Shown piece by piece: positions 527 to 56,551 of a stretch of 64,000 nucleotides of DNA; position 1 is the stretch's first letter, and every line of letters begins with the position of its first letter. The DNA is from Minisyncoccota bacterium (GTDB taxonomy: Bacteria; Patescibacteriota; Minisyncoccia; Phycocordibacterales; UBA5272). The stretch covers positions 351,930-415,929 of the forward strand of contig JAXLZS010000001.1 of NCBI GenBank assembly GCA_046350775.1, read 5' to 3'. The translations under genes and the position numbers were made by a program. The notes below the pieces were generated by a model that saw only the letters and a list, made by a program, of their open reading frames with translations, was not told where the DNA came from and searched no databases.

Positions 527-2296
527 TTATAAAGCATCAACCTCGATAAAAGGCACCTCACCTTCTATTGATTTAATAATAGCGTCTTCCCTCATATTTA
601 TCATTCCCTTCTTTCTAGCAGCTTTCCAAATCTCATCTTCACTCTTTTTATTGAGAATAAGATTTTCTATTTCGTGATCTATTTCTAAAATCTCAAAAAC
701 TGGCACACGACCTTTTAGCCCAGAAGAATTTGTAGAAGAAGGAGCTGCATTGTAAGGATTTTTATCAAGAGGTAAATCTTTTTTATATTCTGGATCCAGA
801 TCTTTAAATGTCTCATCTATTATTGCCTTTACTCCTGGGTCTTTTATTTCGATTTCACAATTTTTATCTATCTTTCTTACAAGTCTTTGAGCTATAGCCA
901 TGATCAAAGTAGGAGCTATCAGATAAGGATCGACACCCATATCAAGCAAGCGACTAACTACTCCTATAGAATTGTTAGTATGAATTGTAGAAAATACGAG
1001 ATGTCCTGTAAGAGCTGCCTGGATAGCAAGCTGAGCTGTCTCAGCATCACGAATTTCTCCTACCATTATCACATTTGGATCCTGACGAAGAATTGAACGA
1101 AGTCCATTTGCAAATGTATAACCAATCTCTGGAAAGATTTGTGACTGATTCATACCTGGAATATTGTACTCCACAGGATCTTCAAGGGAAACCACATTTT
1201 TTCTTTCTCTGTCTATCTCATTTAACATAGAATACAGAGTGGTAGTCTTTCCTGATCCTGTAGGACCAGATATTAATATGATTCCGTAAGGCTTGTTTAT
1301 GTTTGCTCTTATTTGTGATAAATGTCTTTTAGAAAGACCTATCTCTTCTAGTTTTTTCACTCCTCTATAACTATCCAGAATTCTCAATACAGCCTTTTCT
1401 CCATAATAAGTAGGCAATGTGGACACACGAAAATCTATTTTATGATCTTCATATTGGACTGAAAATCTTCCGTCTTGTGGCTTTCTTTTTTCGTCAACTT
1501 TCATACCACAAAGTATTTTAACTCTGGCTATCATGGCTGAAGCTCGAGAAAGAGGTATGTTGAATCTATTTATAAGTACACCATCGATACGCACACGTAC
1601 CCTCACATGATCACCCATATTTTCTATATGTATATCTGAAGCCAAATCCATAATAGCGTTTTTTAAGATGATATTTATCATCTTCATCATCGGCATAGAA
1701 TCAACAAGAGAGTCTAAAATAGTATTGTCTTCGTTGGTTATATCTACAGCCTCATCTTTTATCCCGAGATTTTCTTCCACTTTTGGATGATTATACTGAG
1801 GTATAGCAAAAACTCCCTCGGTAGCATAGCCAGCGAATCTGCGTTTAAATTCACCGAGAGATATAAGATAAACTTTATAAGAAACTCCAGCTGAAGTTAA
1901 AATAAATTGCAAAGCATCAAGAACATTTTTTCTCTCAGGGTCTACTATACCAATCAAAATTTCATCATTTATATTTTGGTTTTTAATAAATTCAGACCCT
2001 TGTTTAGATTGATCATTTTCATTTGATCTACTACCAAGAGGGACAGCTAAAAATCTTTCAGATTTTTCCCTATCCAAAAGAGTGTATAGATTTTTATCTG
2101 CCAAATCTTTTTCTCCACTAAATATCGGTATGCCATAAATAGCATTTCTGGCGGCCAATACAGCAGCTTCTGGTACATTATGCTCACTTAGTATCTCGTC
2201 TATCGGAGCAGATGAAGTTTTCAGAGTCTCTTCGATAGCTCTAGACTCTAATTCACTTATTATATTTTGAGAGACTAATAGATTTAAGAGTATCAT
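527..2296 (-). CDS. pilB: type IV pilus assembly ATPase (GspE/PilB family)
   Basis: 589 aa with a GspE-N-like N-domain. It has Walker A GPTGSGKTTT, Walker B and a His box, as expected for secretion/T4P ATPases. Confidence 0.85.
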   Translation of the reverse strand: MILLNLLVSQNIISELESRAIEETLKTSSAPIDEILSEHNVPEAAVLAARNAIYGIPIFSGEKDLADKNLYTLLDREKSERFLAVPLGSRSNENDQSKQGSEFIKNQNINDEILIGIVDPERKNVLDALQFILTSAGVSYKVYLISLGEFKRRFAGYATEGVFAIPQYNHPKVEENLGIKDEAVDITNEDNTILDSLVDSMPMMKMINIILKNAIMDLASDIHIENMGDHVRVRVRIDGVLINRFNIPLSRASAMIARVKILCGMKVDEKRKPQDGRFSVQYEDHKIDFRVSTLPTYYGEKAVLRILDSYRGVKKLEEIGLSKRHLSQIRANINKPYGIILISGPTGSGKTTTLYSMLNEIDRERKNVVSLEDPVEYNIPGMNQSQIFPEIGYTFANGLRSILRQDPNVIMVGEIRDAETAQLAIQAALTGHLVFSTIHTNNSIGVVSRLLDMGVDPYLIAPTLIMAIAQRLVRKIDKNCEIEIKDPGVKAIIDETFKDLDPEYKKDLPLDKNPYNAAPSSTNSSGLKGRVPVFEILEIDHEIENLILNKKSEDEIWKAARKKGMINMREDAIIKSIEGEVPFIEVDAL

Positions 2297-2388
2297 AATA
2301 TTAATAGTATTATTATACTATAAGAATAAAAAAGAAAAATATTTTTTAATTTAAAATAGTGGAAAATATTAAAAAATATAATTTCAAC

Positions 2389-2691
2389 CTATGGTAAGAA
2401 TGGATTAGATCTTCCGAGACTTTGACTTGGTGAGATAATTTTTGAAAAATCGCTACCGTTTGTCAAAATACTATTATTAATATTTGTATTAAAAGATATA
2501 TTTTCTTTATTTATAATGTCCATATATTGACCAATCTTAGTCTCCTTCAAATATTTATCACTGATACTATCCAACTCCCCACTTGTACTAGTAAAAAATC
2601 CCTGATAAACAAAATATCCAGCTATAAGGATAGCGACTATTAAAACTGGAAATATTATATTTGAAGTTGAAAATTTTCTTGTATTATCCAT
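2389..2691 (-). CDS. small single-TM protein in the T4P operon (PilP-like position)
   Basis: 100 aa with an N-terminal TM helix, co-directional between the pilO-like gene and pilB. No diagnostic motif. Confidence 0.3.
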   Translation of the reverse strand: MDNTRKFSTSNIIFPVLIVAILIAGYFVYQGFFTSTSGELDSISDKYLKETKIGQYMDIINKENISFNTNINNSILTNGSDFSKIISPSQSLGRSNPFLP

Positions 2692-2695
2692 ATTT

Positions 2696-3295
2696 TTAAT
2701 TTTGTTTTAAATAATAAGTCTCCACAGTCACAGAATATTTTAGAGCTGATGTTGCTCTTGTATCTTGAGCTGAGGAAAAATTGAGAGACGTGACATTATA
2801 AATCCTGTTTGAATTTTCTAAGTTTTTCAAAAAAGATTTCATGTTGTTATATGTCCCCTCCAATGTAAATGATACTGATAGAGTATTATATTTTTTGTTA
2901 GAATTTTTATCCCCCCCATTATCGGTAAATTTTGGAGATAATAAGATCATACTGGATCCTGGCTGTTTTGCTATTTCTGATAATTCGTAAATGACAAGTA
3001 CAGGATCAGCCGAAGTCGGTAAAACTTTATTTAATGTATCTATTGAAAGACTATTTAAAGCGTCCACATATTGCCTATTATTATTGGCTATCTTTTTATT
3101 ATAATCATTTGCTATTGATATAGCCTTATCGTATCCTTGATTTTGATCAAGAAGAGTAGAAATATTTTTCTCTGGACTATAAAAAATTCCCGATCCTGAA
3201 TATTGAGGATATATGACAAAATAAAATATGCCTATGATTATAAGTAATATCAATATATTTGAGTAAACTTTATTTTTTAATTTTCCGTTTGGCAT
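2696..3295 (-). CDS. PilO-like pilus assembly protein
   Basis: 199 aa bitopic protein with an N-terminal TM. It follows the pilM then pilN-like genes in the canonical pilMNO order. Confidence 0.4.
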   Translation of the reverse strand: MPNGKLKNKVYSNILILLIIIGIFYFVIYPQYSGSGIFYSPEKNISTLLDQNQGYDKAISIANDYNKKIANNNRQYVDALNSLSIDTLNKVLPTSADPVLVIYELSEIAKQPGSSMILLSPKFTDNGGDKNSNKKYNTLSVSFTLEGTYNNMKSFLKNLENSNRIYNVTSLNFSSAQDTRATSALKYSVTVETYYLKQN

Positions 3296-3327
3296 ATTAT
3301 TATTTTATCATTTTTAATTTACATATA

Positions 3328-4110
3328 TTAATTAGTTTTTACAGAAGATGTCGTGGCTGTGCTTGTAGGATCTACAGGTACCACATTAGCTGGAATTTGA
3401 GACTTGAATAAAGGTCCTGACTTTAATGTCTGAATATTCGACTCTTTTCTTGCACTATCGATAGAAGACTCTATATAGTTTAGAAAATTCTTGGTAGAAA
3501 TATCTATGTTAAAGCTAATATCAAATAAGACATTGCCACTCTGATCTAAAGATAGAGATAATAATTTAAAATTTGAAAAATTTTTATTAAAAGGACCAGA
3601 CTTAAAATTATCTATCTGTCTATACAAAGAAACATAATCTTTTGCTACACCAGAAATTGATACTCCAGCTAGAGGAGCATTATTATCTTTCTTTAAATTG
3701 AATTTATTAAAATAGACATAGCTGTCAGAATTTGATTCTACAATCGATTCTAGAATTGGAAAAAGCATACCTGAAACATACAATTTATTATCATAGACAC
3801 CATTAAGAAGTTTTAATTTTTGAGAAAGAGATCTCATGTCTGCTAAGTTATTTCCAAAATAAACAACGTCTTTAGATTTATCAAAGCCTAATAGTTCAGC
3901 TTTTTTATTTTCTATTTGAGAACTTAAAACTTTTGTATATAAAAATGCTCCAACAGCTAAAAGTATTGTCACTATTAGCATGACCATCAAAAGTATTCTT
4001 ATTGAATCTTTTTTTTGAGGCTCTTCAGGTGTGATAGATGAAGCAAATTCATTGTGTACACCTTGAGTAGGTAGTGGGATATTTGTATCTTGTGTGAAAT
4101 TTGGAAGCAT
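3328..4110 (-). CDS. PilN-like pilus assembly protein
   Basis: 260 aa with a single TM after a short cytoplasmic N-terminus, immediately downstream of pilM on the minus strand. Confidence 0.45.
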   Translation of the reverse strand: MLPNFTQDTNIPLPTQGVHNEFASSITPEEPQKKDSIRILLMVMLIVTILLAVGAFLYTKVLSSQIENKKAELLGFDKSKDVVYFGNNLADMRSLSQKLKLLNGVYDNKLYVSGMLFPILESIVESNSDSYVYFNKFNLKKDNNAPLAGVSISGVAKDYVSLYRQIDNFKSGPFNKNFSNFKLLSLSLDQSGNVLFDISFNIDISTKNFLNYIESSIDSARKESNIQTLKSGPLFKSQIPANVVPVDPTSTATTSSVKTN

Positions 4111-4115
4111 AGTTT

Positions 4116-5186
4116 TTAACTAAAAAGATTTTTTATAGCAAGACCTGCTGCTACTGTGTATTTTTCATCTTCTTTTTTTAAAATATCTTTTAAATTGCTT
4201 GGCAAAATAAAATCAGAAAATGGGTCTGCTAGCACAATTTCTCTTTCGAGAAATTCAGAAAGAAATTTTTGTATACCTTTTTGAAGTGCTCCTCCCCCAC
4301 TTAAAACAACCTTATTTATATTTACATTATACTTTCTTTCGTGCTGAAATAAAAGATGTTTTATCTCATCAAACAGTGGATAACTCGCAAGCCCCATAAC
4401 CTCTCCTAAATGTGGAGATGAGTCGTCACCAAGATATCCAAATATCCTTTTAGCTTCTTCTGCCACATCTATACCGACACCAAGAACTTTGGATATCTGA
4501 GAAGTATTGTCATAAGAGCCTTTTTGAATAAGATTTGTGGTCTTTACTATTCCATTATGAATAAGAGTTACGAAAGAGCTTTTACCTCCAATATCTATGT
4601 GTAGTATTGGCTCATTTATTTTTATTTGTCTTAATATCATACGGGCCCCAGATAAAGCTTCTATCTCAAAAGAAAAATCTTTTAATCCGAGCTTGCTGGC
4701 GTATCTGTTGTATAAATCAAAAGTCTCATTTTTAACAGCTGCCATAATTATCACATCTTGATTAGGATTTTCTTTTGATGTCTCGCCTTTCCAATAATTA
4801 AGTTTTACCTCAGATACTGGCACGGGAAGATATTTTCTAGCTTCTATAGGGACAAGACTGGCCAACTCTTTGTCAGATACCTTTGGTATAGATATAGAAG
4901 AAATAAAACAGTCCTGCATTGGTATAGAAAATACTATTTTGTTGGCAGTTATTTTACTAGCCAAAAACAAATCTTTTATGGCTTGCACCATCTTTTCTTC
5001 TCCAATATTAGAAATAGATCCTGGTGGTAGAGAATCATAGGCCGCCATCTCCAGCTCTCCATATGTCTCTAAATGTATCTGATCACCATCATGTCGAATC
5101 TGTAATACTTTGATAGCATAAGACCCAATATCAAGTCCGGCAAATGATTCTATCGCTTGATTTTTTTTAGTACTTTGCAAAAACAT
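4116..5186 (-). CDS. pilM: type IV pilus assembly protein PilM (actin-like ATPase fold)
   Basis: 356 aa with an N-terminal GLDIGSYAIKV phosphate-1-like motif of the actin/HSP70 fold. It is the first gene of a pilM-N-O-like run. Confidence 0.75.
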   Translation of the reverse strand: MFLQSTKKNQAIESFAGLDIGSYAIKVLQIRHDGDQIHLETYGELEMAAYDSLPPGSISNIGEEKMVQAIKDLFLASKITANKIVFSIPMQDCFISSISIPKVSDKELASLVPIEARKYLPVPVSEVKLNYWKGETSKENPNQDVIIMAAVKNETFDLYNRYASKLGLKDFSFEIEALSGARMILRQIKINEPILHIDIGGKSSFVTLIHNGIVKTTNLIQKGSYDNTSQISKVLGVGIDVAEEAKRIFGYLGDDSSPHLGEVMGLASYPLFDEIKHLLFQHERKYNVNINKVVLSGGGALQKGIQKFLSEFLEREIVLADPFSDFILPSNLKDILKKEDEKYTVAAGLAIKNLFS

Positions 5187-6560: not shown

Positions 6561-6567
6561 ATTACTG

Positions 6568-6641
6568 TGCTCCCACTTGGACTTGAACCAAGGACCCCAC
6601 GGATATAAGCCGTGTGCTCTAACCAACTGAGCTATGAGAGC
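6568..6641 (-). tRNA. tRNA with anticodon UAU (Ile, AUA-reading)
   Basis: 74-nt cloverleaf folded by hand: acceptor GCUCUCA/UGGGAGC, D-arm GCUC-AGUUGGUUA-GAGC, anticodon stem CACGG/CCGUG with loop CUUAUAU, T-arm CUUGG-UUCAAGU-CCAAG, discriminator A. CCA is not encoded. Confidence 0.75.
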
Positions 6642-6717: not shown

Positions 6718-6804
6718 GGAGGATTCGCATAGCGGTTTAGTGCGCCATCTTGGAAAGGTGGTAACTGGGAAACCGGTTCGGGGGTTCGAATCCCCCATCC
6801 TCCG
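6718..6804 (+). tRNA. tRNA-Ser (anticodon GGA), class II with a long variable arm
   Basis: Acceptor GGAGGAU/AUCCUCC with discriminator G. Anticodon stem CCAUC/GGUGG with loop UUGGAAA. Long variable arm ACUGG-GAAA-CCGGU. T-arm GGGGG-UUCGAAU-CCCCC. Confidence 0.85.
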
Positions 6805-6960
6805 CAACATTTCAAAAAGCGGACTCGGTTTTGCGAAGCTACTTTCTTTTTGGGGATATGGATTTGCAAAACCTCCACTGTTTTTGAACGTACCTCTGGG
6901 CTTCCAGGATATGGGCAGAAATGCTGGCGTATTTTGGGCACAAGGACTTGGGATAAAATT
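6805..6960 (+). repeat. partial, diverged copy of the 3' part of repeat family A (see 25919-26215), immediately 3' of tRNA-Ser
   Basis: gcggactcggttttgcgaa...ggggatatggatttgcaaaacctcc...gggcttcc aligns with the A-repeat segment gcggactcggttttacgaa...ggggaaaaggattcgcaaaacctcgg...gggtttgg. The overlapping ORFs 6716-6964 and 6678-6941 are not credible genes. Confidence 0.5.
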
Positions 6961-17599: not shown

Positions 17600-18748
17600 T
17601 TATTTATAATAAACACCTATTGCTTCAGATATATTTTTATATCCATCTTTATTTAGAAGATCTACTAATTCTTTATTTATAATCCCAATCTGGCTTGGAC
17701 CCTCATATATCATACCTGTTATCATCTGTACAAGACTTGCTCCTCTTTTTATTTTTTCATAAGCATCCTTTCCTTCAAAAACACCACCGCAACCGATAAT
17801 AATAAATCTATTTGTATCTTTATATTTTTTATAGACTTCACTTATCAAATTATTTGCAAGCTCTTCTGTCGGCTTTCCTGAAAAATTACCCCTTTGATCT
17901 TTTAATTTTTCTATTTCTTCCCTATTTAAATTTTTATTATTTCTATCTTTTACAAGATTTGAAAAAATAAATCCAGAAACAAATTTATAATTCTCAGCTA
18001 TCTCACATAAATCTAAAGTATCTTCGACAGATTTCTCGCTATGCATCTTTATAAAGACTGGCTTATCTATTTTTATTTCGCTTATCTTATCTAGTAGACT
18101 CTTAAATCCTTCTTTGCTATCAAATTTTATAAAATGCTCTGGTAGATGAATGAGATTTGGGCAAGATATATTAATCTCGAAATAGTCAAAATACTGTTCA
18201 TTGGTAGCCCTCTCAAAAGCTTGATAAAAATCCTCTCTCATACCATCTTCTGTTTCGTATTTTTTATTAGTAGCACCAATACTAATGCCGAGAGGAAAAT
18301 ATTTTTTTCTTTTATTTATTTTCTTTAAAACAAAATCTATACCATTACTTTTAAATCCTTTATTTACGAGCAGTGATTTGGATTTTGGAAGTCTGCCAAG
18401 CATGGGAAATGCATTCCCTTGATAAAAATTATTTGTCACCGTGCCAACAGTCTCAAATCCAAATCCAACTTGGGGCAAAATATTCATCAAATCAGCATCA
18501 TAGTCAAATCCCGCGGCGAGACCGATTGGATTTTTAAAGTCTATTCCCAATATATCTTGATTTAAAGATTGCGACTGAAAAGAAAATATTTTTTTGGTCA
18601 AAAATCTAGAAAATTTATATCTACCTAAAAAATTGCCCATCTTTAAAAATAAGACGTGGATATCATCCGCTGGAAATAAAAATAAAATTGGCTTAATTAT
18701 TTTTTTATAAATAAATCTTATTATTTTTCTCATACTATCTAATTTCAA
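17600..18748 (-). CDS. pyrD: dihydroorotate dehydrogenase (class 2, PyrD-like)
   Basis: NPIGLAAGFD, GFGFETVGTVT, ISCPN and IIGCGGV motifs match DHODH. The N-terminal extension is typical of membrane-associated class 2 enzymes. Confidence 0.8.
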   Translation of the reverse strand: MKLDSMRKIIRFIYKKIIKPILFLFPADDIHVLFLKMGNFLGRYKFSRFLTKKIFSFQSQSLNQDILGIDFKNPIGLAAGFDYDADLMNILPQVGFGFETVGTVTNNFYQGNAFPMLGRLPKSKSLLVNKGFKSNGIDFVLKKINKRKKYFPLGISIGATNKKYETEDGMREDFYQAFERATNEQYFDYFEINISCPNLIHLPEHFIKFDSKEGFKSLLDKISEIKIDKPVFIKMHSEKSVEDTLDLCEIAENYKFVSGFIFSNLVKDRNNKNLNREEIEKLKDQRGNFSGKPTEELANNLISEVYKKYKDTNRFIIIGCGGVFEGKDAYEKIKRGASLVQMITGMIYEGPSQIGIINKELVDLLNKDGYKNISEAIGVYYK

Positions 18749-21194
18749 ATCCTTTAGATTTTAGAGCTTCATAGACTCTCTCTGCTTCTTGATTCACCTC
18801 CTCGTCAGTGAGAGTTCTCTCTTTGTCTTGATAGATGAGTCTAAATCCAAAAGATTTCTTTTTAACTCCATCAATTTCTTTTTCAAATTTATCAAATAAT
18901 TTTAAAGATATACAAAGTGGAGAAATATTTTCTCTTATAGTATTTTCAATATCCGACTCAGAAATATCTTCCCCTACCCAACATGCGACATCGCGCACAA
19001 TAAATGGAGTCAGAGCAAAAGATTGATATTTTGTATCTTTTTTATCAATATTTTCTAGGGCTATATAATCGCTGCCCTGCTCTAAATCTTTTATGAGATT
19101 ATCAAAATCGATCTCAATACAATTTTCTTTTTGTGATGCGTTTTTTGTCTCTGTATATTTTATTTCTTGAATACTAAATTCTTTTTTAATTTCATTCAAA
19201 ATATTTTCTATTTCTTCTTTATAATTTTTATTTTTCTTTCCGTCATCGATAGCTATAGCTAGACTTCTCCACTCTATTTCTTTGCCATCAGCATCAACTG
19301 AAAAACAATTTCCAAATTCAAATACTCTGATCATATCAGTATCTATGAGGGGCATATTGAAAATATTTTTTTGTATTGCTTCTTCGACTCCTACAGAAAG
19401 ATTATTTCTTAAAAAGTTTTTATCTTGAGCGACAGATTTCAAGATCTCTATATCTCCTTTATTTCTGAGACTATAAGTATATATTTCACTAAATCCTTTT
19501 TTAAATAAAATATTTTTAATTTTATTTTCAAAATAAAGTCTTTTATTTGGAGCTCTTATCTTGTCTAATTTAGGTAAGACACTTTGTATATTATTAAGAC
19601 CAAAAACTCTGGCTACTTCCTCTATCAAATCTTCTTTGATTCTCAAATCCAATCTTTCTTCTGGAATGGTAACCACAAATCTCTCTTCTTCTAAATTTTC
19701 TAAGACTCTACCGTATCCCACAAACTCACCCCTAGCTAAAAATTCTTCAACAGACTCTATCTCTGTACCGTCTTTTAACTCGCTAGAAGAATGAATAACT
19801 TTATCCTCACCTAAAAACATAGCAAGATGATCTACACCATTTTCCACTCTTTCACCTTTTCTATATTCTTTTCCTTCAAAATAAATACCTGTACTTTTTA
19901 CTTTTCCTGTATTTATAAAAATAAGATCTCCAAATTTTAAATCTTCTTTAGACTTTATTCCTTTTGCCAAATCTTTTGTATAAAGATATTTATCAATAGA
20001 AATAGAAGGCATATAAATTCCTTCATATAAATATGAAATTAAAGATGAACAAGAAAATGCATTTGGAGCATCTTCACGCATAGAGCTTGGATTTTTATAA
20101 GCCTTACCAACTACTCCACTTATCTTATTTTCAATATTTTCTTTTGTAGAAATATATTTAAAATAAAAATTAAATCTTTTAAAAATATTTTCAACTTCTT
20201 CTTTGTTTATATTTATTCCAATTAATCTATTTATTTCATTTAAAGAAACAGAAACTTTATATTTCCAGCTATTTATTTTTTCTTTTGGCCAATTATCTAC
20301 TATCTCTCCAATTTCTATCTCAGTATTTTCATCACTCGCATACTCTTTTATAAGTTTCAAAGTTTCTATCATTCCGATTTCTACCAACTCATCAGCTATC
20401 TCATTTTCAAATCTTTTACTTGCGTCAGTTTTTAAATTATATTTTTGTGAAGTTTTACGAATCAGTGTCGGATTAAAATTAGCACTTTCTATAATAATAT
20501 TTTTTGTCTCATTTGAAATTCCAGAATACTTTCCACCTTTTATGCCAGCAAGACCTAAGACATTTTTACTGTCTGCGATGACTAAAGTTTTCCCATCTAA
20601 TTCTAAATCTTTATCATCAAGAGTTGTCATTCTTTCTCCATCTTTTGCAAATCTTGCTTCAAGACAAATATTATCTTTTGCTGATACCAGATTTGCGTCA
20701 TAAGCATGCATTGGTTTATTAAAACTAAATTGTACATAATTTGTAATATCTACAATATTATTTATACTTTTTTGACCAATAGCTTCAAGTCTGTATTTTA
20801 TAAATTCTGGAGAATCTTTTACTACTATGCTATTTACTTTGCAACCCATAAATCTCATACAAGATTTTGGATCAGAGATTTTTATAAAATCAGAATCAGA
20901 CTTTTTAAAAGAAAAAATATTTTTATAATCTACTGATTTTAATTTAAAATTAAATAGAGCAGCGACTTCTTTCGCCATATAGTAGTGTGACAGCGCATCA
21001 TGGGCTCTGTTTGGAAGAACATTTAAGTCATAAATAAAATCTTTTTTCTCAGATTCATTTTTCGCTAATTTATTTTCTATTTCAAAAAATTCTTCAACTT
21101 CAAAAGCGTTTGTAGAAATAACTTTTACAAAATCTTCCCCTTTTGGAATTTTCTCTTCAATATAATCTTGTATCCAGCTGTGTAAATATTTCAT
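18735..21194 (-). CDS. pheT: phenylalanyl-tRNA synthetase beta subunit. It lacks the EMAP-like tRNA-binding domain and carries an inserted NlpC/P60-like papain-fold domain.
   Basis: B1 N-terminus, then B3/4 (VLPNRAHDALSHYYMAKEVAAL), B5 (LIEEVARVFGLNNI) and the C-terminal FDX-ACB domain. An insert of about 150 aa has NlpC/P60 hallmarks (FSCSSLISYLY, GDLIFIN, VDHLAMFLGEDKVIHSS). Confidence 0.85.
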   Translation of the reverse strand: MKYLHSWIQDYIEEKIPKGEDFVKVISTNAFEVEEFFEIENKLAKNESEKKDFIYDLNVLPNRAHDALSHYYMAKEVAALFNFKLKSVDYKNIFSFKKSDSDFIKISDPKSCMRFMGCKVNSIVVKDSPEFIKYRLEAIGQKSINNIVDITNYVQFSFNKPMHAYDANLVSAKDNICLEARFAKDGERMTTLDDKDLELDGKTLVIADSKNVLGLAGIKGGKYSGISNETKNIIIESANFNPTLIRKTSQKYNLKTDASKRFENEIADELVEIGMIETLKLIKEYASDENTEIEIGEIVDNWPKEKINSWKYKVSVSLNEINRLIGININKEEVENIFKRFNFYFKYISTKENIENKISGVVGKAYKNPSSMREDAPNAFSCSSLISYLYEGIYMPSISIDKYLYTKDLAKGIKSKEDLKFGDLIFINTGKVKSTGIYFEGKEYRKGERVENGVDHLAMFLGEDKVIHSSSELKDGTEIESVEEFLARGEFVGYGRVLENLEEERFVVTIPEERLDLRIKEDLIEEVARVFGLNNIQSVLPKLDKIRAPNKRLYFENKIKNILFKKGFSEIYTYSLRNKGDIEILKSVAQDKNFLRNNLSVGVEEAIQKNIFNMPLIDTDMIRVFEFGNCFSVDADGKEIEWRSLAIAIDDGKKNKNYKEEIENILNEIKKEFSIQEIKYTETKNASQKENCIEIDFDNLIKDLEQGSDYIALENIDKKDTKYQSFALTPFIVRDVACWVGEDISESDIENTIRENISPLCISLKLFDKFEKEIDGVKKKSFGFRLIYQDKERTLTDEEVNQEAERVYEALKSKGFEIR

Positions 21195-21198
21195 AAAT

Positions 21199-22104
21199 TT
21201 ATTTTAAACTATTTTTTAAATTATCCAAATAACCTTTCTTCTTCATTTCTTCTAACAAAATCCAATCTGCAGTAAAAGGTAAATATTTTTCTTTATCTTC
21301 TTTTGTTAAATCTCTCCAAGGAACTATACTTCCATAACATTTTTTGCTTTTACAAAAACATTTTCCTTCAGGGTTTTGCCAATCAGAATTACAAAATAAA
21401 CTATATGACATTGTTAGTTCTTCACCTTTTTTAATATCTCTCATTGCTGTAACAAAAAATAAATCTTTTATATAACAATTTGGCTCACAACTATGATTAA
21501 ATTTTACAGATAAAGAATTAAAAGAATTTCTATAAAAATATTTTGAAAAAGGAATAGCGTGATCTTTAACTAAAGAATTAATTTGTGATTCTTTTTTTGC
21601 AAAATAAATTTGTCCATCTACATATGATAATATTTCTCCTTTCTTTATATCTTCTTTTGCAAAAATTCCGGAACCTTTAACTTTTGTAGATTTTAATTCT
21701 ATCTTATCTTCATATTTTCTATAAAGTGAGTCTGGGGTTTCTTTATATGTAAAATCTTTTATATCAAAATATTTTTTTATAAATTCAATTGTCTTTTCTG
21801 TATTAAAATCCTTACAACTATAAATATCAACTGTTAGAAAATTATATTTAGTCCAAACATAAATATCAGCCCCTGATTCTGCCCAGACAACTTGTCCTTC
21901 ATATCCTTCATGGATTGGTTTTGCATTCCCTGTTGCGGAAGAAATGAAAGGACCATTAATAGTTTTCATTTTTAAATTCTTTGCCAGATCTAAAAGAAAA
22001 TTATTGATTAATTTTTCTTCTCCTTTATTTTTTATTTTCAATTTATAAGAAGCTTCTACTATTAAACGCTTTCTAAAAATATCTTTTGCTAAATCGTAAT
22101 ACAT
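21199..22104 (-). CDS. fusion protein: N-terminal AdoMetDC (SpeH)-like domain plus C-terminal SET-domain methyltransferase
   Basis: The N-terminus aligns to bacterial S-adenosylmethionine decarboxylase proenzyme (EGYEGQVVWAESGADIYVWTKYNFLTVDIYSCKDF versus [32 protein letters not shown]). The C-terminus has SET motifs NHSCEPN and a GEELTMSY post-SET tyrosine. Confidence 0.6.
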   Translation of the reverse strand: MYYDLAKDIFRKRLIVEASYKLKIKNKGEEKLINNFLLDLAKNLKMKTINGPFISSATGNAKPIHEGYEGQVVWAESGADIYVWTKYNFLTVDIYSCKDFNTEKTIEFIKKYFDIKDFTYKETPDSLYRKYEDKIELKSTKVKGSGIFAKEDIKKGEILSYVDGQIYFAKKESQINSLVKDHAIPFSKYFYRNSFNSLSVKFNHSCEPNCYIKDLFFVTAMRDIKKGEELTMSYSLFCNSDWQNPEGKCFCKSKKCYGSIVPWRDLTKEDKEKYLPFTADWILLEEMKKKGYLDNLKNSLK

Positions 22105-22108
22105 AAAT

Positions 22109-22420
22109 TTATTTTGATTCCTTTAAAATCCATTCACTATAACTTTTATTTGCTTCGACTTCATTCATTTTTATAATGCAAGGAATTTCATAACTGTGAT
22201 TTTCTTCAATACATTTTTTAACTTTATTCCAATTCTCTTTTCTGGTTTTTAAATAGGTTGCAATTTCTTTTGTTGATAATATTTTATCTTTCCAAAAATA
22301 TTTGGATTCTATATTTATATAATTAGCACAAGCGATCAATTTTTTATCAAGCAAAATCTTGACTATTTTATCAGCTTCTTTTTTATTTTTAAATGTAGAA
22401 TAAATAATAATGAATTTCAT
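22109..22420 (-). CDS. cutA: CutA1 divalent-cation tolerance protein
   Basis: 103 aa with the CutA pattern LIACANYI...YFWKDKI...HSYEIPCII (compare HPYEVPEII). Confidence 0.7.
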   Translation of the reverse strand: MKFIIIYSTFKNKKEADKIVKILLDKKLIACANYINIESKYFWKDKILSTKEIATYLKTRKENWNKVKKCIEENHSYEIPCIIKMNEVEANKSYSEWILKESK

Positions 22421-22424
22421 AAAA

Positions 22425-22856
22425 TTAATTTAAATAATCTTGAATACTTTTAATTATAAAATCAGAAATATTTTCTGGTATTTGTACTGGTGGTACACCT
22501 TTTAATGAAGGAGAAATGTAGTGTCCTCCAAAATTCGGGTCTGAAAAAGTAAGACCTAAGATTTCTACTGGCTTAATATATCTTGGTCTAAAATGAAAAT
22601 GTACATGTGGTTTTTCATTATCTCTGTAAGCATTATTCATTAAACATGAATAGTTAAACATAGTTGCATTTAATTTTTCTTTATAAAAAGATTCTAATTT
22701 CTTTATTAATATAAAAAAATCTTTTTGTTCTTCTTCTGATATTTCTGGCAAAGAAGTTTTATCATCTTTTAAAGAAAGAATTAGTCTACCAAGATACATC
22801 TGATCTGGATTTAAAATTAGATCCCAGTATTTTGTTGAATAAAAATGTTGGTTCAT
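22425..22856 (-). CDS. HIT-family (histidine triad) hydrolase-like protein
   Basis: PHVHFHFRPRY matches the HxHxHxx histidine triad followed by PR, as in HIT nucleotide hydrolases. Confidence 0.5.
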   Translation of the reverse strand: MNQHFYSTKYWDLILNPDQMYLGRLILSLKDDKTSLPEISEEEQKDFFILIKKLESFYKEKLNATMFNYSCLMNNAYRDNEKPHVHFHFRPRYIKPVEILGLTFSDPNFGGHYISPSLKGVPPVQIPENISDFIIKSIQDYLN

Positions 22857-22861
22857 AAATT

Positions 22862-23698
22862 TTAAAATTGATTAACTACCCTTAGATCTCCATTGTATAA
22901 AAATCTAATATCGTCGAGGCCATACTTTAGCATTGCGATTCTATCTATTCCTCCACCAAAAGCAAATCCAGAATATTTTCTTGAGTCGATACCGCAATTT
23001 TCTAGCACCTTTGGATGAACCATGCCAGCCCCCATGATTTCTATATATCCTGTCTTTTTACAAATATTGCAGCCTGCCCCGTCACATTTAAAGCATCTCA
23101 TAGCCACTTCTAGTCCTGGCTCGACAAATGGGAAAAATGAGGAGCGAAATACTACATCGATTTCTTTTTCAAATAATTCTGAAAAGAATTTTTCAAGAGT
23201 AGCTTTTAGATTTGCAAGAGAAATATTTTCTCCGACAAGCAATCCTTCGACTTGATGAAATTGCGCCTCGTGAGTCGCATCAGTCGCCTCATTACGAAAA
23301 ACTTTTCCAGGACAAACTATAGCTATCGGGAAAATTTCTTTCTCAGTTTTTTCTGCATTTTTTAACTCTTGCATTTTTTGTGTCATATATCTGATCTGGA
23401 CACTAGAAGTGTGGGTACGAAGTACAGCTTTTCCATCTCTGTCATCCTCTTTCAATTTTAAGAAAAATGTATCTTGCATATCACGAGATGGATGATCTTT
23501 TGGCACATTGAGCGCGTCGAAATTGTACCACTCCCTCTCCAGCTCTCTACCATCCGCAATATCAAATCCCATACCAGTAAAAATCTTTGATATCTTATCA
23601 ATCAAAATAGTGATCGGATGAGCATGATTAGATTTTGTATTTTCTTCTCCATTCATAGACTTATTATCTGATTTAAATATAAGAGAATTATAGCACAA
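22862..23698 (-). CDS. pheS: phenylalanyl-tRNA synthetase alpha subunit (N-terminally short)
   Basis: Class II catalytic core: HPITILID, FRNEATDATHEAQFHQVEGL, GAGMVHP. It lacks the usual N-terminal coiled-coil. Confidence 0.9.
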   Translation of the reverse strand: MCYNSLIFKSDNKSMNGEENTKSNHAHPITILIDKISKIFTGMGFDIADGRELEREWYNFDALNVPKDHPSRDMQDTFFLKLKEDDRDGKAVLRTHTSSVQIRYMTQKMQELKNAEKTEKEIFPIAIVCPGKVFRNEATDATHEAQFHQVEGLLVGENISLANLKATLEKFFSELFEKEIDVVFRSSFFPFVEPGLEVAMRCFKCDGAGCNICKKTGYIEIMGAGMVHPKVLENCGIDSRKYSGFAFGGGIDRIAMLKYGLDDIRFLYNGDLRVVNQF

Positions 23699-30021: not shown

Positions 30022-31614
30022 ATGCAAAAATTCTTTTTATACGCTCGCAAGTCTACCGATGTGGAGGACAAGCAAGTGTTGAGTATTGAAGCGCAGTTGC
30101 AAGAGCTTCGTGATTTTGCCAAGCGAGAAAATATCGAAATAGTTTGCGAATTTATAGAAAAACAATCTGCGAAAATTCCGGGTCGTCCAATTTTTAATCA
30201 AATGATCTCGCAGATTGAAAAAGGATTCGCAAACGGCATTCTTGCTTGGCACCCTGATAGACTTGCTCGCAATAGTGTCGATGGAGGACGCATAATTTAC
30301 CTTGTGGACGAGAAAAAATTAGAATTTCTGAAATTTATTCAGTTTTGGTTTGAACCTACACCACAAGGCAAATTTATGCTCTCCATCGCCTTTGGTCAAA
30401 GTAAGTACTATGTGGATTCTCTTTCTGAAAATACCAAACGCGGTTTGCGACAAAAGATTCGGCGCGGAGAATATCCAGGACTTTCACCTGTGGGATATAT
30501 CAATGATTCTAGAACTAAAACTGTCGTGGTAAACAAAAAGACCGCGCCGATCATTCGCCAAGCGTTTGAGATGTATGCAAAGGGAAATATATCAATGGAT
30601 AACATCGGTGTATTTTTTGAAGCAAATCGCTTGTTTGGAAAAAATGGAAAGAGAATCCACAGAACGCGAGCATACTATATTCTTGCGAATCCATTTTACT
30701 ATGGACATTTTCGGTATATGGGAGAAATTTACGAAGGTAAATACGAGCCAATCGTGTCAAAGCAACTTTTTGACAAAGTACAAGAAGTGATGAAGCAGAA
30801 AAGTCGTCCAAGACATAAAGAAATATCTGAACCACAAGCGTATTGTGGACTGTTGTCATGTGCCACTTGCGGAATGATGATAACTGGCGAATACAGGGTG
30901 AAAACACAGAAAAATGGCACACAACATTTCTATACTTATTATCACTGCACCAAGAAACGCAGAGATATGAAATGTCCTGAATCCTGTATTCGCCAGGAAG
31001 TCTTGGACGAACAAATTTCATCACTTCTTCAAAAAGTTTCTATGCCACGAGACTGGGCGGATTATTTACACGAAAGATTACAAAAAGATAAAATGGAATC
31101 CGCCCAGTCTGTTTTTGCTTTTGTTGAGAAAAACGAAAAAAAGATAAAAGACATTGAGGTGAAGTTCCAGCGACTTTTGGAGGGATATTTAGACCAAGAT
31201 ATTGAGAAAGAAATTTATCGTGAAGAAAAAGCAAGATTGTTATCTGTAAAAAAGTCGCTTGAGGAGGAAATATCCAAGAACCAACAAAAACAAAAACATT
31301 GGCTCGAACCGATGGAAAAGTGGATAAAGGACGCACAGAATATAGAAAAAATTGCATTGGATTCCGACCTTTTTGCGAAAAAGGTCTGCGCCAAAGAAAT
31401 CTTTGGCTCGAACCTCTCCCTTGGCGAAAAACAGGTGCGCGCAAGCGCGCCCGCATTTCCGAATTCCCCCGCAGAATCAGGGCAAACACAGTGGGACGCG
31501 CTTCGCGCGTCCCACCATTTGGCATCTTCCGAACCATTTTGTTCGTTTATGGAGCCACTTGTCAGATTCGAACTGACGACCTACGGTTTACAAAACCGTT
31601 GCTCTACCAACTGA
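30022..31614 (+). CDS. large serine recombinase (serine integrase family)
   Basis: Resolvase catalytic domain (YARKSTDVEDKQVLSIEAQ, HPDRLARN), recombinase domain, zinc beta-ribbon (CGLLSCATCGMM...YHCTKK...CPESC) and a long coiled-coil. It is visibly GC-richer than its surroundings. The last roughly 65 codons run through repeat C' and overlap tRNA-Thr, so the true stop is uncertain. Confidence 0.85.
   Translation: MQKFFLYARKSTDVEDKQVLSIEAQLQELRDFAKRENIEIVCEFIEKQSAKIPGRPIFNQMISQIEKGFANGILAWHPDRLARNSVDGGRIIYLVDEKKLEFLKFIQFWFEPTPQGKFMLSIAFGQSKYYVDSLSENTKRGLRQKIRRGEYPGLSPVGYINDSRTKTVVVNKKTAPIIRQAFEMYAKGNISMDNIGVFFEANRLFGKNGKRIHRTRAYYILANPFYYGHFRYMGEIYEGKYEPIVSKQLFDKVQEVMKQKSRPRHKEISEPQAYCGLLSCATCGMMITGEYRVKTQKNGTQHFYTYYHCTKKRRDMKCPESCIRQEVLDEQISSLLQKVSMPRDWADYLHERLQKDKMESAQSVFAFVEKNEKKIKDIEVKFQRLLEGYLDQDIEKEIYREEKARLLSVKKSLEEEISKNQQKQKHWLEPMEKWIKDAQNIEKIALDSDLFAKKVCAKEIFGSNLSLGEKQVRASAPAFPNSPAESGQTQWDALRASHHLASSEPFCSFMEPLVRFELTTYGLQNRCSTN
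31408..31554. repeat. repeat C, right copy
   Basis: Inverted copy of 29705-29860. It ends in ...gtttatggag, overlapping the CUCCA 3' terminus of tRNA-Thr. Confidence 0.8.
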
Positions 31615-31625
31615 GCTAAAGTGGC
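31550..31625 (-). tRNA. tRNA-Thr (anticodon UGU), CCA encoded
   Basis: GCCACUU-UA-GCUC-AGUUGGUA-GAGC-A-ACGGU-UUUGUAA-ACCGU-AGGUC-GUCAG-UUCGAAU-CUGAC-AAGUGGC-U-CCA, folded by hand. Confidence 0.85.
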
Positions 31626-55954: not shown

Positions 55955-56343
55955 GGGAGTGTCAGGATTCGACACTTAATTCTTTGTAAATGTGGTCTTC
56001 GATAATGAAAGTGAATCGCTAAAAAACTTTCACCTACGCTGCAAACAATACAGCAAAAGCAATCCGCTCACCATTTATGGCGTACGGATTCGCTCCAGTA
56101 GCCGCTTAATTTTAAGCCGCTCCGGTGTCACCTCTCACTACATGACGTGGGAGATCTGACAATATAAAGATCATGTGTAGAAAATTTTCTTTTCGTATTT
56201 ATGAAAATTTTTGAAATGTAAAAATACTAAGCTAGATAATTTTTCTTATTTTATATATCTAGTCGAAAAATAAAAAATAAGATATGAGACTAGAGTCATT
56301 TATAAAAATTAATTGCACGGGGGTTCAACTCCCCCCACTTCCA
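55955..56343 (+). ncRNA. ssrA: tmRNA (SsrA)
   Basis: The 5' end GGGAGUGUCAGGAUUCGACAC carries the conserved GGAUUCGAC box. The 3' tRNA-like end is CGGGGGUUCAACUCCCCC + CACUUCC + A, and the acceptor pairs GGGAGUG/CACUUCC. The internal tag frame ends ...MAYGFAPVAA followed by UAA-UUU-UAA. Confidence 0.85.
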
Positions 56344-56551
56344 CAAAATCAGTTAATTAAACTTAATAATAAACCACATCAAAAGTCTCACGAAGAGATA
56401 AAGTAAAAATACAATACACCAAATAAATTTTTCAAAAAGTGAGACCAGAAATGAATCCATATAAAAATAAAATATCAAAATAATAAAAGTTTTACAAAAA
56501 TGACTTTTTTATGGATTGTGTTATAATTAACATTATAAAAACATAAAAACT

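Follow-up and report, generated by a model that had tools for sequence, protein, structure and literature searches.

Organisation of the fusion gene

The DNA analysed here, hereafter the window, is a stretch of 64,000 nucleotides from a Minisyncoccota bacterium (contig JAXLZS010000001.1, positions 351,930 to 415,929). On its minus strand, a single open reading frame (ORF) coincides exactly with positions 21199..22104: according to the ORF list and its translation it begins with ATG and encodes 301 aa, and its stop codon (21199-21201) lies inside these coordinates. The product joins a domain folded like S-adenosylmethionine (AdoMet) decarboxylase (AdoMetDC, SpeD) to a complete SET/post-SET methyltransferase, and this fusion is genuine and conserved. 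From its N-terminus, the protein consists of a class-1b AdoMetDC (SpeD) fold domain of the type termed clade A below (residues 1-125, 21730..22104, minus strand like all parts of the gene), backed by Pfam, AlphaFold2 and Foldseek; a short linker or helix (residues 126-134, 21703..21729), helical over its length in the AlphaFold2 secondary structure at a lower predicted local distance difference test score (pLDDT); a SET core (residues 135-247, 21364..21702), supported by Pfam, Foldseek and PDB sequence matches; a post-SET motif, C249-x-C251-x4-C256 (21337..21360); and a C-terminal helical tail of three predicted helices (residues 257-301, PWRDL...KYLPFTADWIL..., 21202..21336).

Both Pfam matches are far beyond chance, AdoMet_dc (PF02675) covering residues 29-122 (E 3e-13, 50.5 bits, gathering cut-off 25) and SET (PF00856) residues 144-234 (E 3e-16, 60.1 bits, cut-off 22.4). 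AlphaFold models reached a pLDDT of 85 for the full-length protein, and a pLDDT of 90 with a predicted template modelling score (pTM) of 0.85 for the N-domain alone. When the N-domain model was searched with Foldseek, the top PDB matches were the class-1b AdoMetDCs of T. maritima and A. aeolicus (template modelling (TM) scores 0.67-0.77), among them 1tlu of T. maritima (TM 0.70/0.77, E 8e-8); 2iii was also matched, and eukaryotic AdoMetDCs and the T. brucei prozyme (5tvm_B) ranked after the bacterial class-1b enzymes. An earlier note on this DNA, made from the sequence alone, had claimed a fusion of an AdoMetDC-like domain to a SET domain, leaving the homology of the N-terminal half to profile searches and the folds to modelling. 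This claim is borne out by the Pfam matches above curated cut-offs on both halves and by the structure models: profile searches do support AdoMetDC homology (PF02675, E 3e-13), AlphaFold confirms both folds, and the motifs quoted at the time are all present, namely AESGAD (75-80), NHSCEPN (203-209) and ELTMSY (229-234).

The SET half

The sequence of the C-terminal half shows a complete SET/post-SET methyltransferase of the prokaryotic type: no AdoMet-binding or catalytic motif is missing, and nothing points to inactivity. The motifs G144-S-G146, N203-HSCEPN-209 and E229-LTMSY-234, the latter with the catalytic Tyr234, are invariant or nearly so in the fusion family and in stand-alone SET proteins, and D241-W242 is invariant in the fusion family. 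The cysteines C206, C249, C251 and C256, invariant both in the fusion family and in stand-alone prokaryotic SET proteins, correspond to the zinc site of known SET enzymes, and the post-SET motif aligns to that of MLL1. Foldseek matched this half to the SET domains of MLL1/4, ASH1L, NSD and SETD2 (E ~1e-8) and also to BurB (9l4v, E 1.8e-7); sequence matches in the PDB were to KMT2A and NSD, and the MLL/NSD lysine methyltransferases outscore BurB.

The nearest relatives of the SET half are stand-alone prokaryotic SET proteins of ~170 aa (33-41% identity). Fusion and stand-alone proteins, BurB included, have in common GxG, NHSCxPN, ELTxxY, CxCx4C and a C-terminal helical tail, for which the tail consensus 'CRGxITGxDW..KY.GYFA.YL' holds in both; unlike the fusion, the stand-alone proteins have no N-terminal SpeD-like domain. 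BurB is a methionine S-methyltransferase, a stand-alone prokaryotic SET enzyme that acts on a free amino acid (PMC12542666). Since it falls in the same size class, a small-molecule acceptor is conceivable for the fusion SET domain. We looked for BurB-like small-molecule specificity in the sequence; BurB holds methionine via main-chain atoms (PMC12542666), so there are no diagnostic residues to compare.

The N-domain belongs to a separate SpeD-like clade

In a gapless phmmer alignment to T. maritima AdoMetDC (1tlu), E76-S77 (21874..21879) falls on Glu62-Ser63, the Glu-Ser self-cleavage (pyruvoyl) site, Tyr82 (21859..21861) on His68, and Cys97, the last residue of the strand D93-I-Y-S-C97 (21814..21828), on Cys83. 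To judge function from residues, we used Fig. S5 of Li et al. 2023 (PMC10407285), whose marked glycines were inferred from its printed alignment, together with our own census at the key columns. Characterised SpeD homologues all keep Ser, His and Cys (PMC10407285). The conserved Cys is kept here as well, D93, Y95 and C97 being 100% conserved, while the His of functional SpeD is replaced by Tyr in 100% of the clade-A SET fusions. The N-terminal G-x-H likewise gives way to R11-K12-R13 in the first beta-strand (22066..22074), which is 100% conserved in the fusion family and thus lacks the conserved glycine; G70 is retained. The earlier note was right that the His directly after the Ser is lost (ESH to ESG), and missed the more telling change five residues after the Ser, where the T. 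maritima His68 has become Tyr82.

Profile scores point the same way. Against TIGR03330 (SAM_DCase_Bsu), the NCBIfam equivalog for AdoMetDC, the N-domain scores 36-39 bits, short of the cut-off of 75.65, and stand-alone clade-A relatives likewise score just 33-40 bits. A family profile of the N-domain, run against 1.84 billion representatives, gave 2852 matches, and 384 retrieved proteins were sorted at the key columns into two groups. The canonical group (clade B) reads G-(K)-H...E-S-H...H...D-F-C-K-F, holds Ser, His and Cys in 149 of 153 members, and takes in SpeD-deoxyhypusine-synthase and SpeD-SpeDC fusions. Clade A, the group of the window's protein, is large and reads R-x-R...(E/T/D)-S-G...Y...D-Y-C-K-F or, in another form of the motif, RxR...ESG...Y...DIYxC; most of its members stand alone, are 112-135 aa long and come from Nanoarchaeota, Woesearchaeota, Bathyarchaeia, Sedimentisphaerales (Planctomycetota), Gracilibacteria and others. 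Among its stand-alone members, 91 have Ser/Tyr/Cys and 13 Ser/His/Cys; because some still carry the His, the clade probably descends from active enzymes. The closest non-fusion relatives of the window's N-domain are stand-alone clade-A proteins of the Ser/Tyr/Cys type, P0119 (43% identity) and P0271 (50%). Characterised SpeD relatives include arginine and ornithine decarboxylases for which AdoMet is not the substrate (PMC10407285), and the N-domain does not cluster with domains of this type either; the only fusions that do are P0054 and P0206, described below.

Taken together, residues and profiles indicate that the N-domain is a class-1b AdoMetDC fold, but one of a separate SpeD-like clade and not a canonical AdoMetDC. 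The stand-alone clade-A proteins (P0117-P0145, P0268-P0284 and others) are all automatically named 'S-adenosylmethionine decarboxylase', and are probably mis-annotated. Full-text literature searches found no paper in which a clade-A protein was assayed.

A phage origin of clade A, prompted by endolysin and Gam-like neighbours of P0119, was considered and dropped: a tblastn search of P0119 against 50,697 phage records returned no match, and the matches in BFVD are ordinary phage SpeD homologues.

Clade-A modules also occur in other arrangements. In P0114/P0267 (Gracilibacteria, 319 aa), P0196 and P0225 the module stands in tandem, one copy being degenerate at Ser or Cys, an arrangement that recalls the pseudo-dimeric class-2 AdoMetDC of eukaryotes. 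P0157 (381 aa), P0174 (409 aa) and P0233 (418 aa) join the module ('HWETSGAHFYAWD') to a C-domain of ~260 aa, for which we found no PDB match and, in one of the three, sub-threshold matches to GNAT/Acetyltransf_5 (E 2.5e-4) and autoinducer synthase (E 0.028). P0154 (255 aa) has a recombination endonuclease VII domain upstream of a fused clade-A module with His. A singleton, P0228 (Woesearchaeota, UCD03767.1, partial), couples the module to a class I SAM-dependent methyltransferase and may be a read-through of two adjacent genes. A general coupling of the SpeD-like module to methyltransferases of various folds was rejected: P0228 is the sole case, and its methyltransferase half has only stand-alone proteins (~226 aa) among its 119 best homologues.

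The fusion recurs in Patescibacteria and is under purifying selection

A search of 5.8 billion proteins found 54 clusters (90% identity) that carry both Pfam domains and are 33-94% identical to the window's protein; a profile search contributed further 50%-identity representatives, and the total is at least 55 clusters. Sources, where named, are Parcubacteria, Nomurabacteria, Moraniibacteria or 'Patescibacteria group', so that every named one belongs to the Patescibacteria, the group in which the earlier note had suggested looking and in which many clusters were indeed found. Their automatic names are 'SET domain-containing protein-lysine N-methyltransferase' or, in Joint Genome Institute (JGI) annotation, 'S-adenosylmethionine decarboxylase'. 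The ORF is also present in the complete genomes CP064958.1 and CP064975.1, and P0001 is an orthologue 94% identical to the window's protein. Against the 94%-identical orthologue at locus L004, the ratio of nonsynonymous to synonymous substitution rates (dN/dS) is 0.10 over the whole gene; taken separately, the N-domain has 0.09 and the SET half 0.10. Ratios of about 0.1 in both halves mean strong and equal purifying selection, and hence an N-domain that is functional and not decaying.

These data also bear on whether two neighbouring genes were merged by an assembly or gene-calling error. Singleton fusions do exist in the family, the class I methyltransferase fusion P0228 being unique and marked as partial, and P0116 resembles a truncated fusion. 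The same unbroken ORF is nonetheless found in the window, in many clusters from many samples and in both complete genomes; its linker is short, and purifying selection extends over the whole ORF. Recurrence and purifying selection together exclude an assembly artefact, and we consider a merge of this kind vanishingly improbable.

SET domains are joined to SpeD-family modules from two clades, of which one looks catalytically competent. P0054 (280 aa) and P0206 (278 aa) are a second kind of SpeD-SET fusion, rare and divergent, with an N-domain of the SpeDC (pyruvoyl ornithine decarboxylase) type in which the 'IETS...H...C' motif is intact; this N-domain is 50-58% identical to stand-alone Ser/His/Cys proteins of the candidate phyla radiation (CPR), and the proteins may be truly bifunctional enzymes. 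In P0002 (467 aa) and P0005 (465 aa), a second, divergent SET/post-SET domain is appended beyond the C-terminal tail.

The former active site is preserved where the serine is lost

In a census of 57 fusion clusters, 44-45 have Ser/Tyr/Cys, and in ~12 the Ser is replaced by Asn, His or Ala. The dipeptide is EN or EH in ~20% of fusions, so the Glu-Ser retention that the earlier note had emphasised is not a feature of the whole family. Those without Ser form a whole, Moraniibacteria-like subclade, within which mean identity is 67.7% for the N-domain and 68.0% for the SET domain. Over the N-domain, the subclades with and without Ser are just 40% identical to each other; nevertheless, R11, K12, R13, E17, W74, E76, Y82, W84, D93, Y95, C97 and F100 are 100% conserved in both. 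By alignment to T. maritima AdoMetDC, these 12 residues map to the active-site strands of the AdoMetDC fold; in human AdoMetDC, residues of the N-terminal strand such as Phe7 line the ligand site, as PMC5201418 also mentions. One cluster goes further: P0049, whose SET domain is 61% identical to that of the window's protein, has lost Ser, Tyr and Cys altogether and kept the N-domain.

As the N-domains without Ser are undecayed and their pocket is intact, the conserved function of the family is unlikely to depend on a pyruvoyl group. The simplest reading of these alignments is that the common function would be binding in, or structure around, the preserved pocket, and not pyruvoyl catalysis.

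Function of the fusion protein

We favour, with a probability of about 0.5, the explanation that the protein is an active SET methyltransferase carrying a SpeD-fold accessory module that does not decarboxylate and serves in dimerisation and/or ligand binding. The gene product would be a cytoplasmic two-domain enzyme, whose N-domain would not decarboxylate AdoMet and most likely would not mature to a pyruvoyl enzyme. As an accessory of the methyltransferase, the N-domain would dimerise the protein via the usual class-1b dimer interface, and the aromatic and charged former active-site pocket, which is strictly conserved, would bind a ligand; candidates are a small cationic metabolite (an AdoMet-related compound or an amine) or part of the methylation substrate. 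Ligand binding or dimerisation could then control or target the SET domain, for which a protein lysine, a small amine or a thioether are candidate methyl acceptors. Animal spermine synthase offers a plausible parallel, with an AdoMetDC-derived N-domain that has lost catalysis and is still essential for dimer formation. Two other AdoMetDC-fold modules that are catalytically dead and serve structurally or in regulation set further precedents, the T. brucei prozyme (PMC5201418) and the degraded SpeDC domain of V. vadensis (PMC10407285). This explanation agrees with the earlier note, which suggested that the N-domain may serve in binding or regulation. It does not adopt the note's description of the domain as AdoMet-binding, a premise that is unproven for a separate SpeD-like clade when some characterised SpeD relatives use no AdoMet (PMC10407285).

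Several observations weigh against an accessory module. The window's protein retains Ser77 and Cys97, and stand-alone clade-A proteins keep Ser in ~97% and Cys in nearly all cases, which is unexpected for a non-catalytic fold; this retention could reflect a variant self-processing chemistry in which Tyr or Glu69 takes part. The His persists in a minority of clade-A members, and the SpeDC-type SET fusions P0054/P0206, with Ser, His and Cys intact, hint at a metabolic coupling of decarboxylation to the SET reaction. Nor do the seven fusion loci have a conserved gene neighbourhood that points to a substrate.

The same observations feed the main alternative, tentative and rather unlikely, a bifunctional metabolic enzyme in which a His-less SpeD-like pyruvoyl decarboxylase with variant self-processing acts on the small molecule that the SET domain N- or S-methylates. 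The substrate would be an amino acid or a sulfonium compound, methylated before or after decarboxylation: an amino acid could become an amine and then a methylated amine or betaine, or methionine could pass through S-methylmethionine to dimethylsulfoniopropylamine. Such an enzyme would explain why Ser77, Cys97, Glu17 and Glu76 are kept in the window's protein and in 44 of the 57 fusion clusters, and the Ser in ~97% of stand-alone clade-A proteins. It would fit the coupling of SET to SpeD-family modules of two clades, the module of P0054/P0206 being closest to SpeDC domains with IETS...H...C intact, as well as the true bifunctionality of bacterial AdoMetDC-aminopropyltransferase fusions (PMC12803844), the methylation of a free amino acid by BurB (PMC12542666), which structurally matches the SET half, and the position of one stand-alone clade-A gene directly downstream of a LysA-like decarboxylase gene. 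It is difficult to reconcile with a whole subclade that lacks the Ser while constraint on domain and pocket is not relaxed; the SET half moreover has the canonical lysine-methyltransferase signature, scoring higher with MLL/NSD than with BurB, and genes of polyamine or amine metabolism are not consistently nearby. Those who take the N-domain for a bona fide AdoMet decarboxylase (SpeD), fused to a methyltransferase to co-regulate the use of AdoMet, can point to the Pfam AdoMet_dc match above threshold, to the JGI name 'S-adenosylmethionine decarboxylase' and to the Glu-Ser site and Cys of the window's protein. We nevertheless regard this as highly implausible: the NCBIfam equivalog score of the domain is less than half the cut-off, the domain has neither the His nor the N-terminal G-x-H, the nearest relatives are not canonical SpeD, the Ser is lost in part of the family, and in none of the seven loci does a spermidine synthase gene lie beside the fusion.

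A third alternative would retain the accessory role and dispense with the pocket, the SpeD-fold domain being a dimerisation scaffold only, a role like the one put forward for human spermine synthase. In its favour, class-1b AdoMetDCs are obligate dimers, the N-domain of spermine synthase is needed for dimer formation (PMC12803844), and P0049 kept the domain after losing pocket residues. For a mere scaffold, however, there would be no need to keep twelve residues of the former active site 100% conserved between clades with only 40% identity in this domain; furthermore, the spermine synthase domain has lost detectable AdoMetDC similarity, whereas the Pfam match of the fusion is centred on the active-site strands. 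We therefore consider a scaffold without a ligand pocket unlikely.

Comparison with known fusions of the AdoMetDC fold

A SpeD-fold domain that is fused to, and serves, a transferase is an already known kind of arrangement, represented by spermine synthase and by bacterial AdoMetDC-aminopropyltransferase fusions; the earlier note named no precedent, yet these fusions and the degenerate N-domain of spermine synthase are a close one (PMC12803844). In animal spermine synthase, the N-domain goes back to a bacterial fusion of AdoMetDC and aminopropyltransferase; it has lost decarboxylase activity and is essential for dimer formation (PMC12803844). Like the SET fusion, spermine synthase (human SMS, PDB 3C6K) combines an N-terminal AdoMetDC fold whose catalytic residues are lost with a transferase that uses an AdoMet-derived cofactor. 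It differs in its partner, a Rossmann-fold aminopropyltransferase and not a SET domain; in its N-domain, which has no AdoMetDC sequence similarity, whereas in the SET fusion conservation peaks at the strands of the former active site; and in its origin from canonical AdoMetDC, the SET fusion coming from the other SpeD-like clade. In bacterial AdoMetDC-aminopropyltransferase and SpeD-SpeDC fusions, a SpeD-family domain is likewise joined to a second enzyme, and V. vadensis has a degraded, non-cleaving SpeDC domain (PMC10407285). Unlike the SET fusion, these proteins join enzymes that follow one another in polyamine synthesis, and Ser, His and Cys are all present in the active ones; the SET fusion has a methyltransferase partner with no known polyamine role, and its His is absent.

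Two further systems are similar in part. The prozyme of T. brucei is an unprocessed AdoMetDC paralogue that has lost key residues and activates its partner by dimerising (PMC5201418). It resembles the N-domain as an AdoMetDC fold without key residues and as a structural match to its model (5tvm_B), but trypanosomatid prozyme is built like the class-2 enzymes of eukaryotes and forms a chain of its own, and the enzyme under its control is AdoMetDC itself, not a methyltransferase. The pyruvoyl arginine and ornithine decarboxylases SpeDA and SpeDC share with the N-domain the small class-1b fold, a wide occurrence in CPR and DPANN lineages, and mis-annotation as AdoMetDC; the characterised ones keep Ser, His and Cys, in contrast to the Tyr for His, the R-x-R for G-x-H and the separate clade of the window's protein.

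The SET domain as partner, the origin from clade A and the preservation of the pocket are new. Full-text literature searches found no paper on an AdoMetDC/SpeD-SET fusion or on the His-less clade A, and to that extent the earlier statement that the architecture is not described stands; the databases, however, already hold clusters with both Pfam labels. The family is a recurrent, selected fusion of SET to a SpeD fold in ultra-small symbiotic bacteria, where genes kept in reduced genomes likely matter and SET proteins are essentially unstudied. Pipelines label clade A as AdoMetDC although it lacks the His that all family members with demonstrated activity have, so polyamine-pathway reconstructions for its host organisms may be wrong. 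If the N-domain is an accessory module, the fusion would be a bacterial counterpart of spermine synthase, in which an AdoMetDC-derived domain is re-used as a structural or regulatory module; with a partner of another fold and a conserved pocket, it could be a tractable system for what such pockets bind once catalysis is lost. A bifunctional enzyme, if true, would instead represent a self-contained two-step pathway and a new catalytic variant of pyruvoyl enzymes, making a methylated diamine, a betaine or, via S-methylmethionine, dimethylsulfoniopropylamine. It would also provide a function for >100 clusters from CPR, DPANN and other lineages that are wrongly labelled 'AdoMetDC', and be the second small-molecule SET enzyme after BurB.

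Gene neighbourhood and other features of the window

In the window, the fusion belongs to a co-directional run of pheS (22862-23698), a HIT-like gene (22425-22856), CutA1 (22109-22420), the fusion itself and pheT (18735-21194), and starts four bases downstream of the stop of the preceding gene. The HIT-like gene has an HVHFHF motif and no Pfam match at 1e-5. In the 94%-identical relative (L004 550-4677) the fusion alone lies between pheS and pheT, where the window has three genes. A conserved operon was rejected on the basis of seven independent loci (the window, L001-L004, L006 and L007): their neighbours differ, and the placement between pheS and pheT is confined to the window and the 94% relative. 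No polyamine gene lies near the fusion in these seven loci. Nor can recent acquisition be claimed: the fusion, CutA and HIT-like genes are slightly richer in AT (GC 0.23-0.25) than pheT/pheS (0.27-0.39), which is too weak a difference.

Two stand-alone clade-A genes also abut aminoacyl-tRNA synthetase (aaRS) genes, one next to a class I aaRS in a Nanoarchaeota metagenome-assembled genome and one next to ArgRS in an unrelated lineage (L019 5001-7975; L020 3150-5360). Including the window, 3 of the 13 independent loci show aaRS adjacency (P ~0.03 in a rough, post hoc binomial test); this is a hint only, reduced genomes being dense in translation genes. Other surroundings of clade-A genes vary. 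In Bathyarchaeia (L008-L010, 1215-5372), P0121 is divergent beside a methanofuran-biosynthesis-like cluster (4HFCP_synth, ATP-grasp_3, Hydantoinase_A, AA_kinase). In Sedimentisphaerales (L011-L012, 1-10366), P0266 lies in a co-directional run with a GGDEF protein, two unknowns and a 3534-aa SNF2-like/helicase/RadC protein, a context that may be a defence system or mobile element. P0124 (L013-L014, 1584-4393), which is 55% identical to the N-domain of the fusion P0122, lies directly downstream of genes for a LysA-like pyridoxal phosphate-dependent decarboxylase (TIGR01048, 233 bits, below cut-off) and for an unknown 383-aa protein.

Elsewhere in the window, residues ~377-470 of PheT (18735-21194, minus strand) match NlpC/P60 (PF00877, E 3.4e-8, 33.8 bits, cut-off 23). 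This match lies between the PheT B3_4 and B5 domains as an unusual insert, and is faint in the L004 orthologue (2230-4677). RNA genes comprise a tRNA-Ile with anticodon UAU (6567-6641, minus strand), an uncommon bacterial way of reading AUA; tRNA-Ser(GGA) at 6718-6805; tRNA-Thr(UGU) at 31550-31625; and a full-length transfer-messenger RNA gene at 55955-56346 on the plus strand (Rfam RF00023, 85.8 bits).

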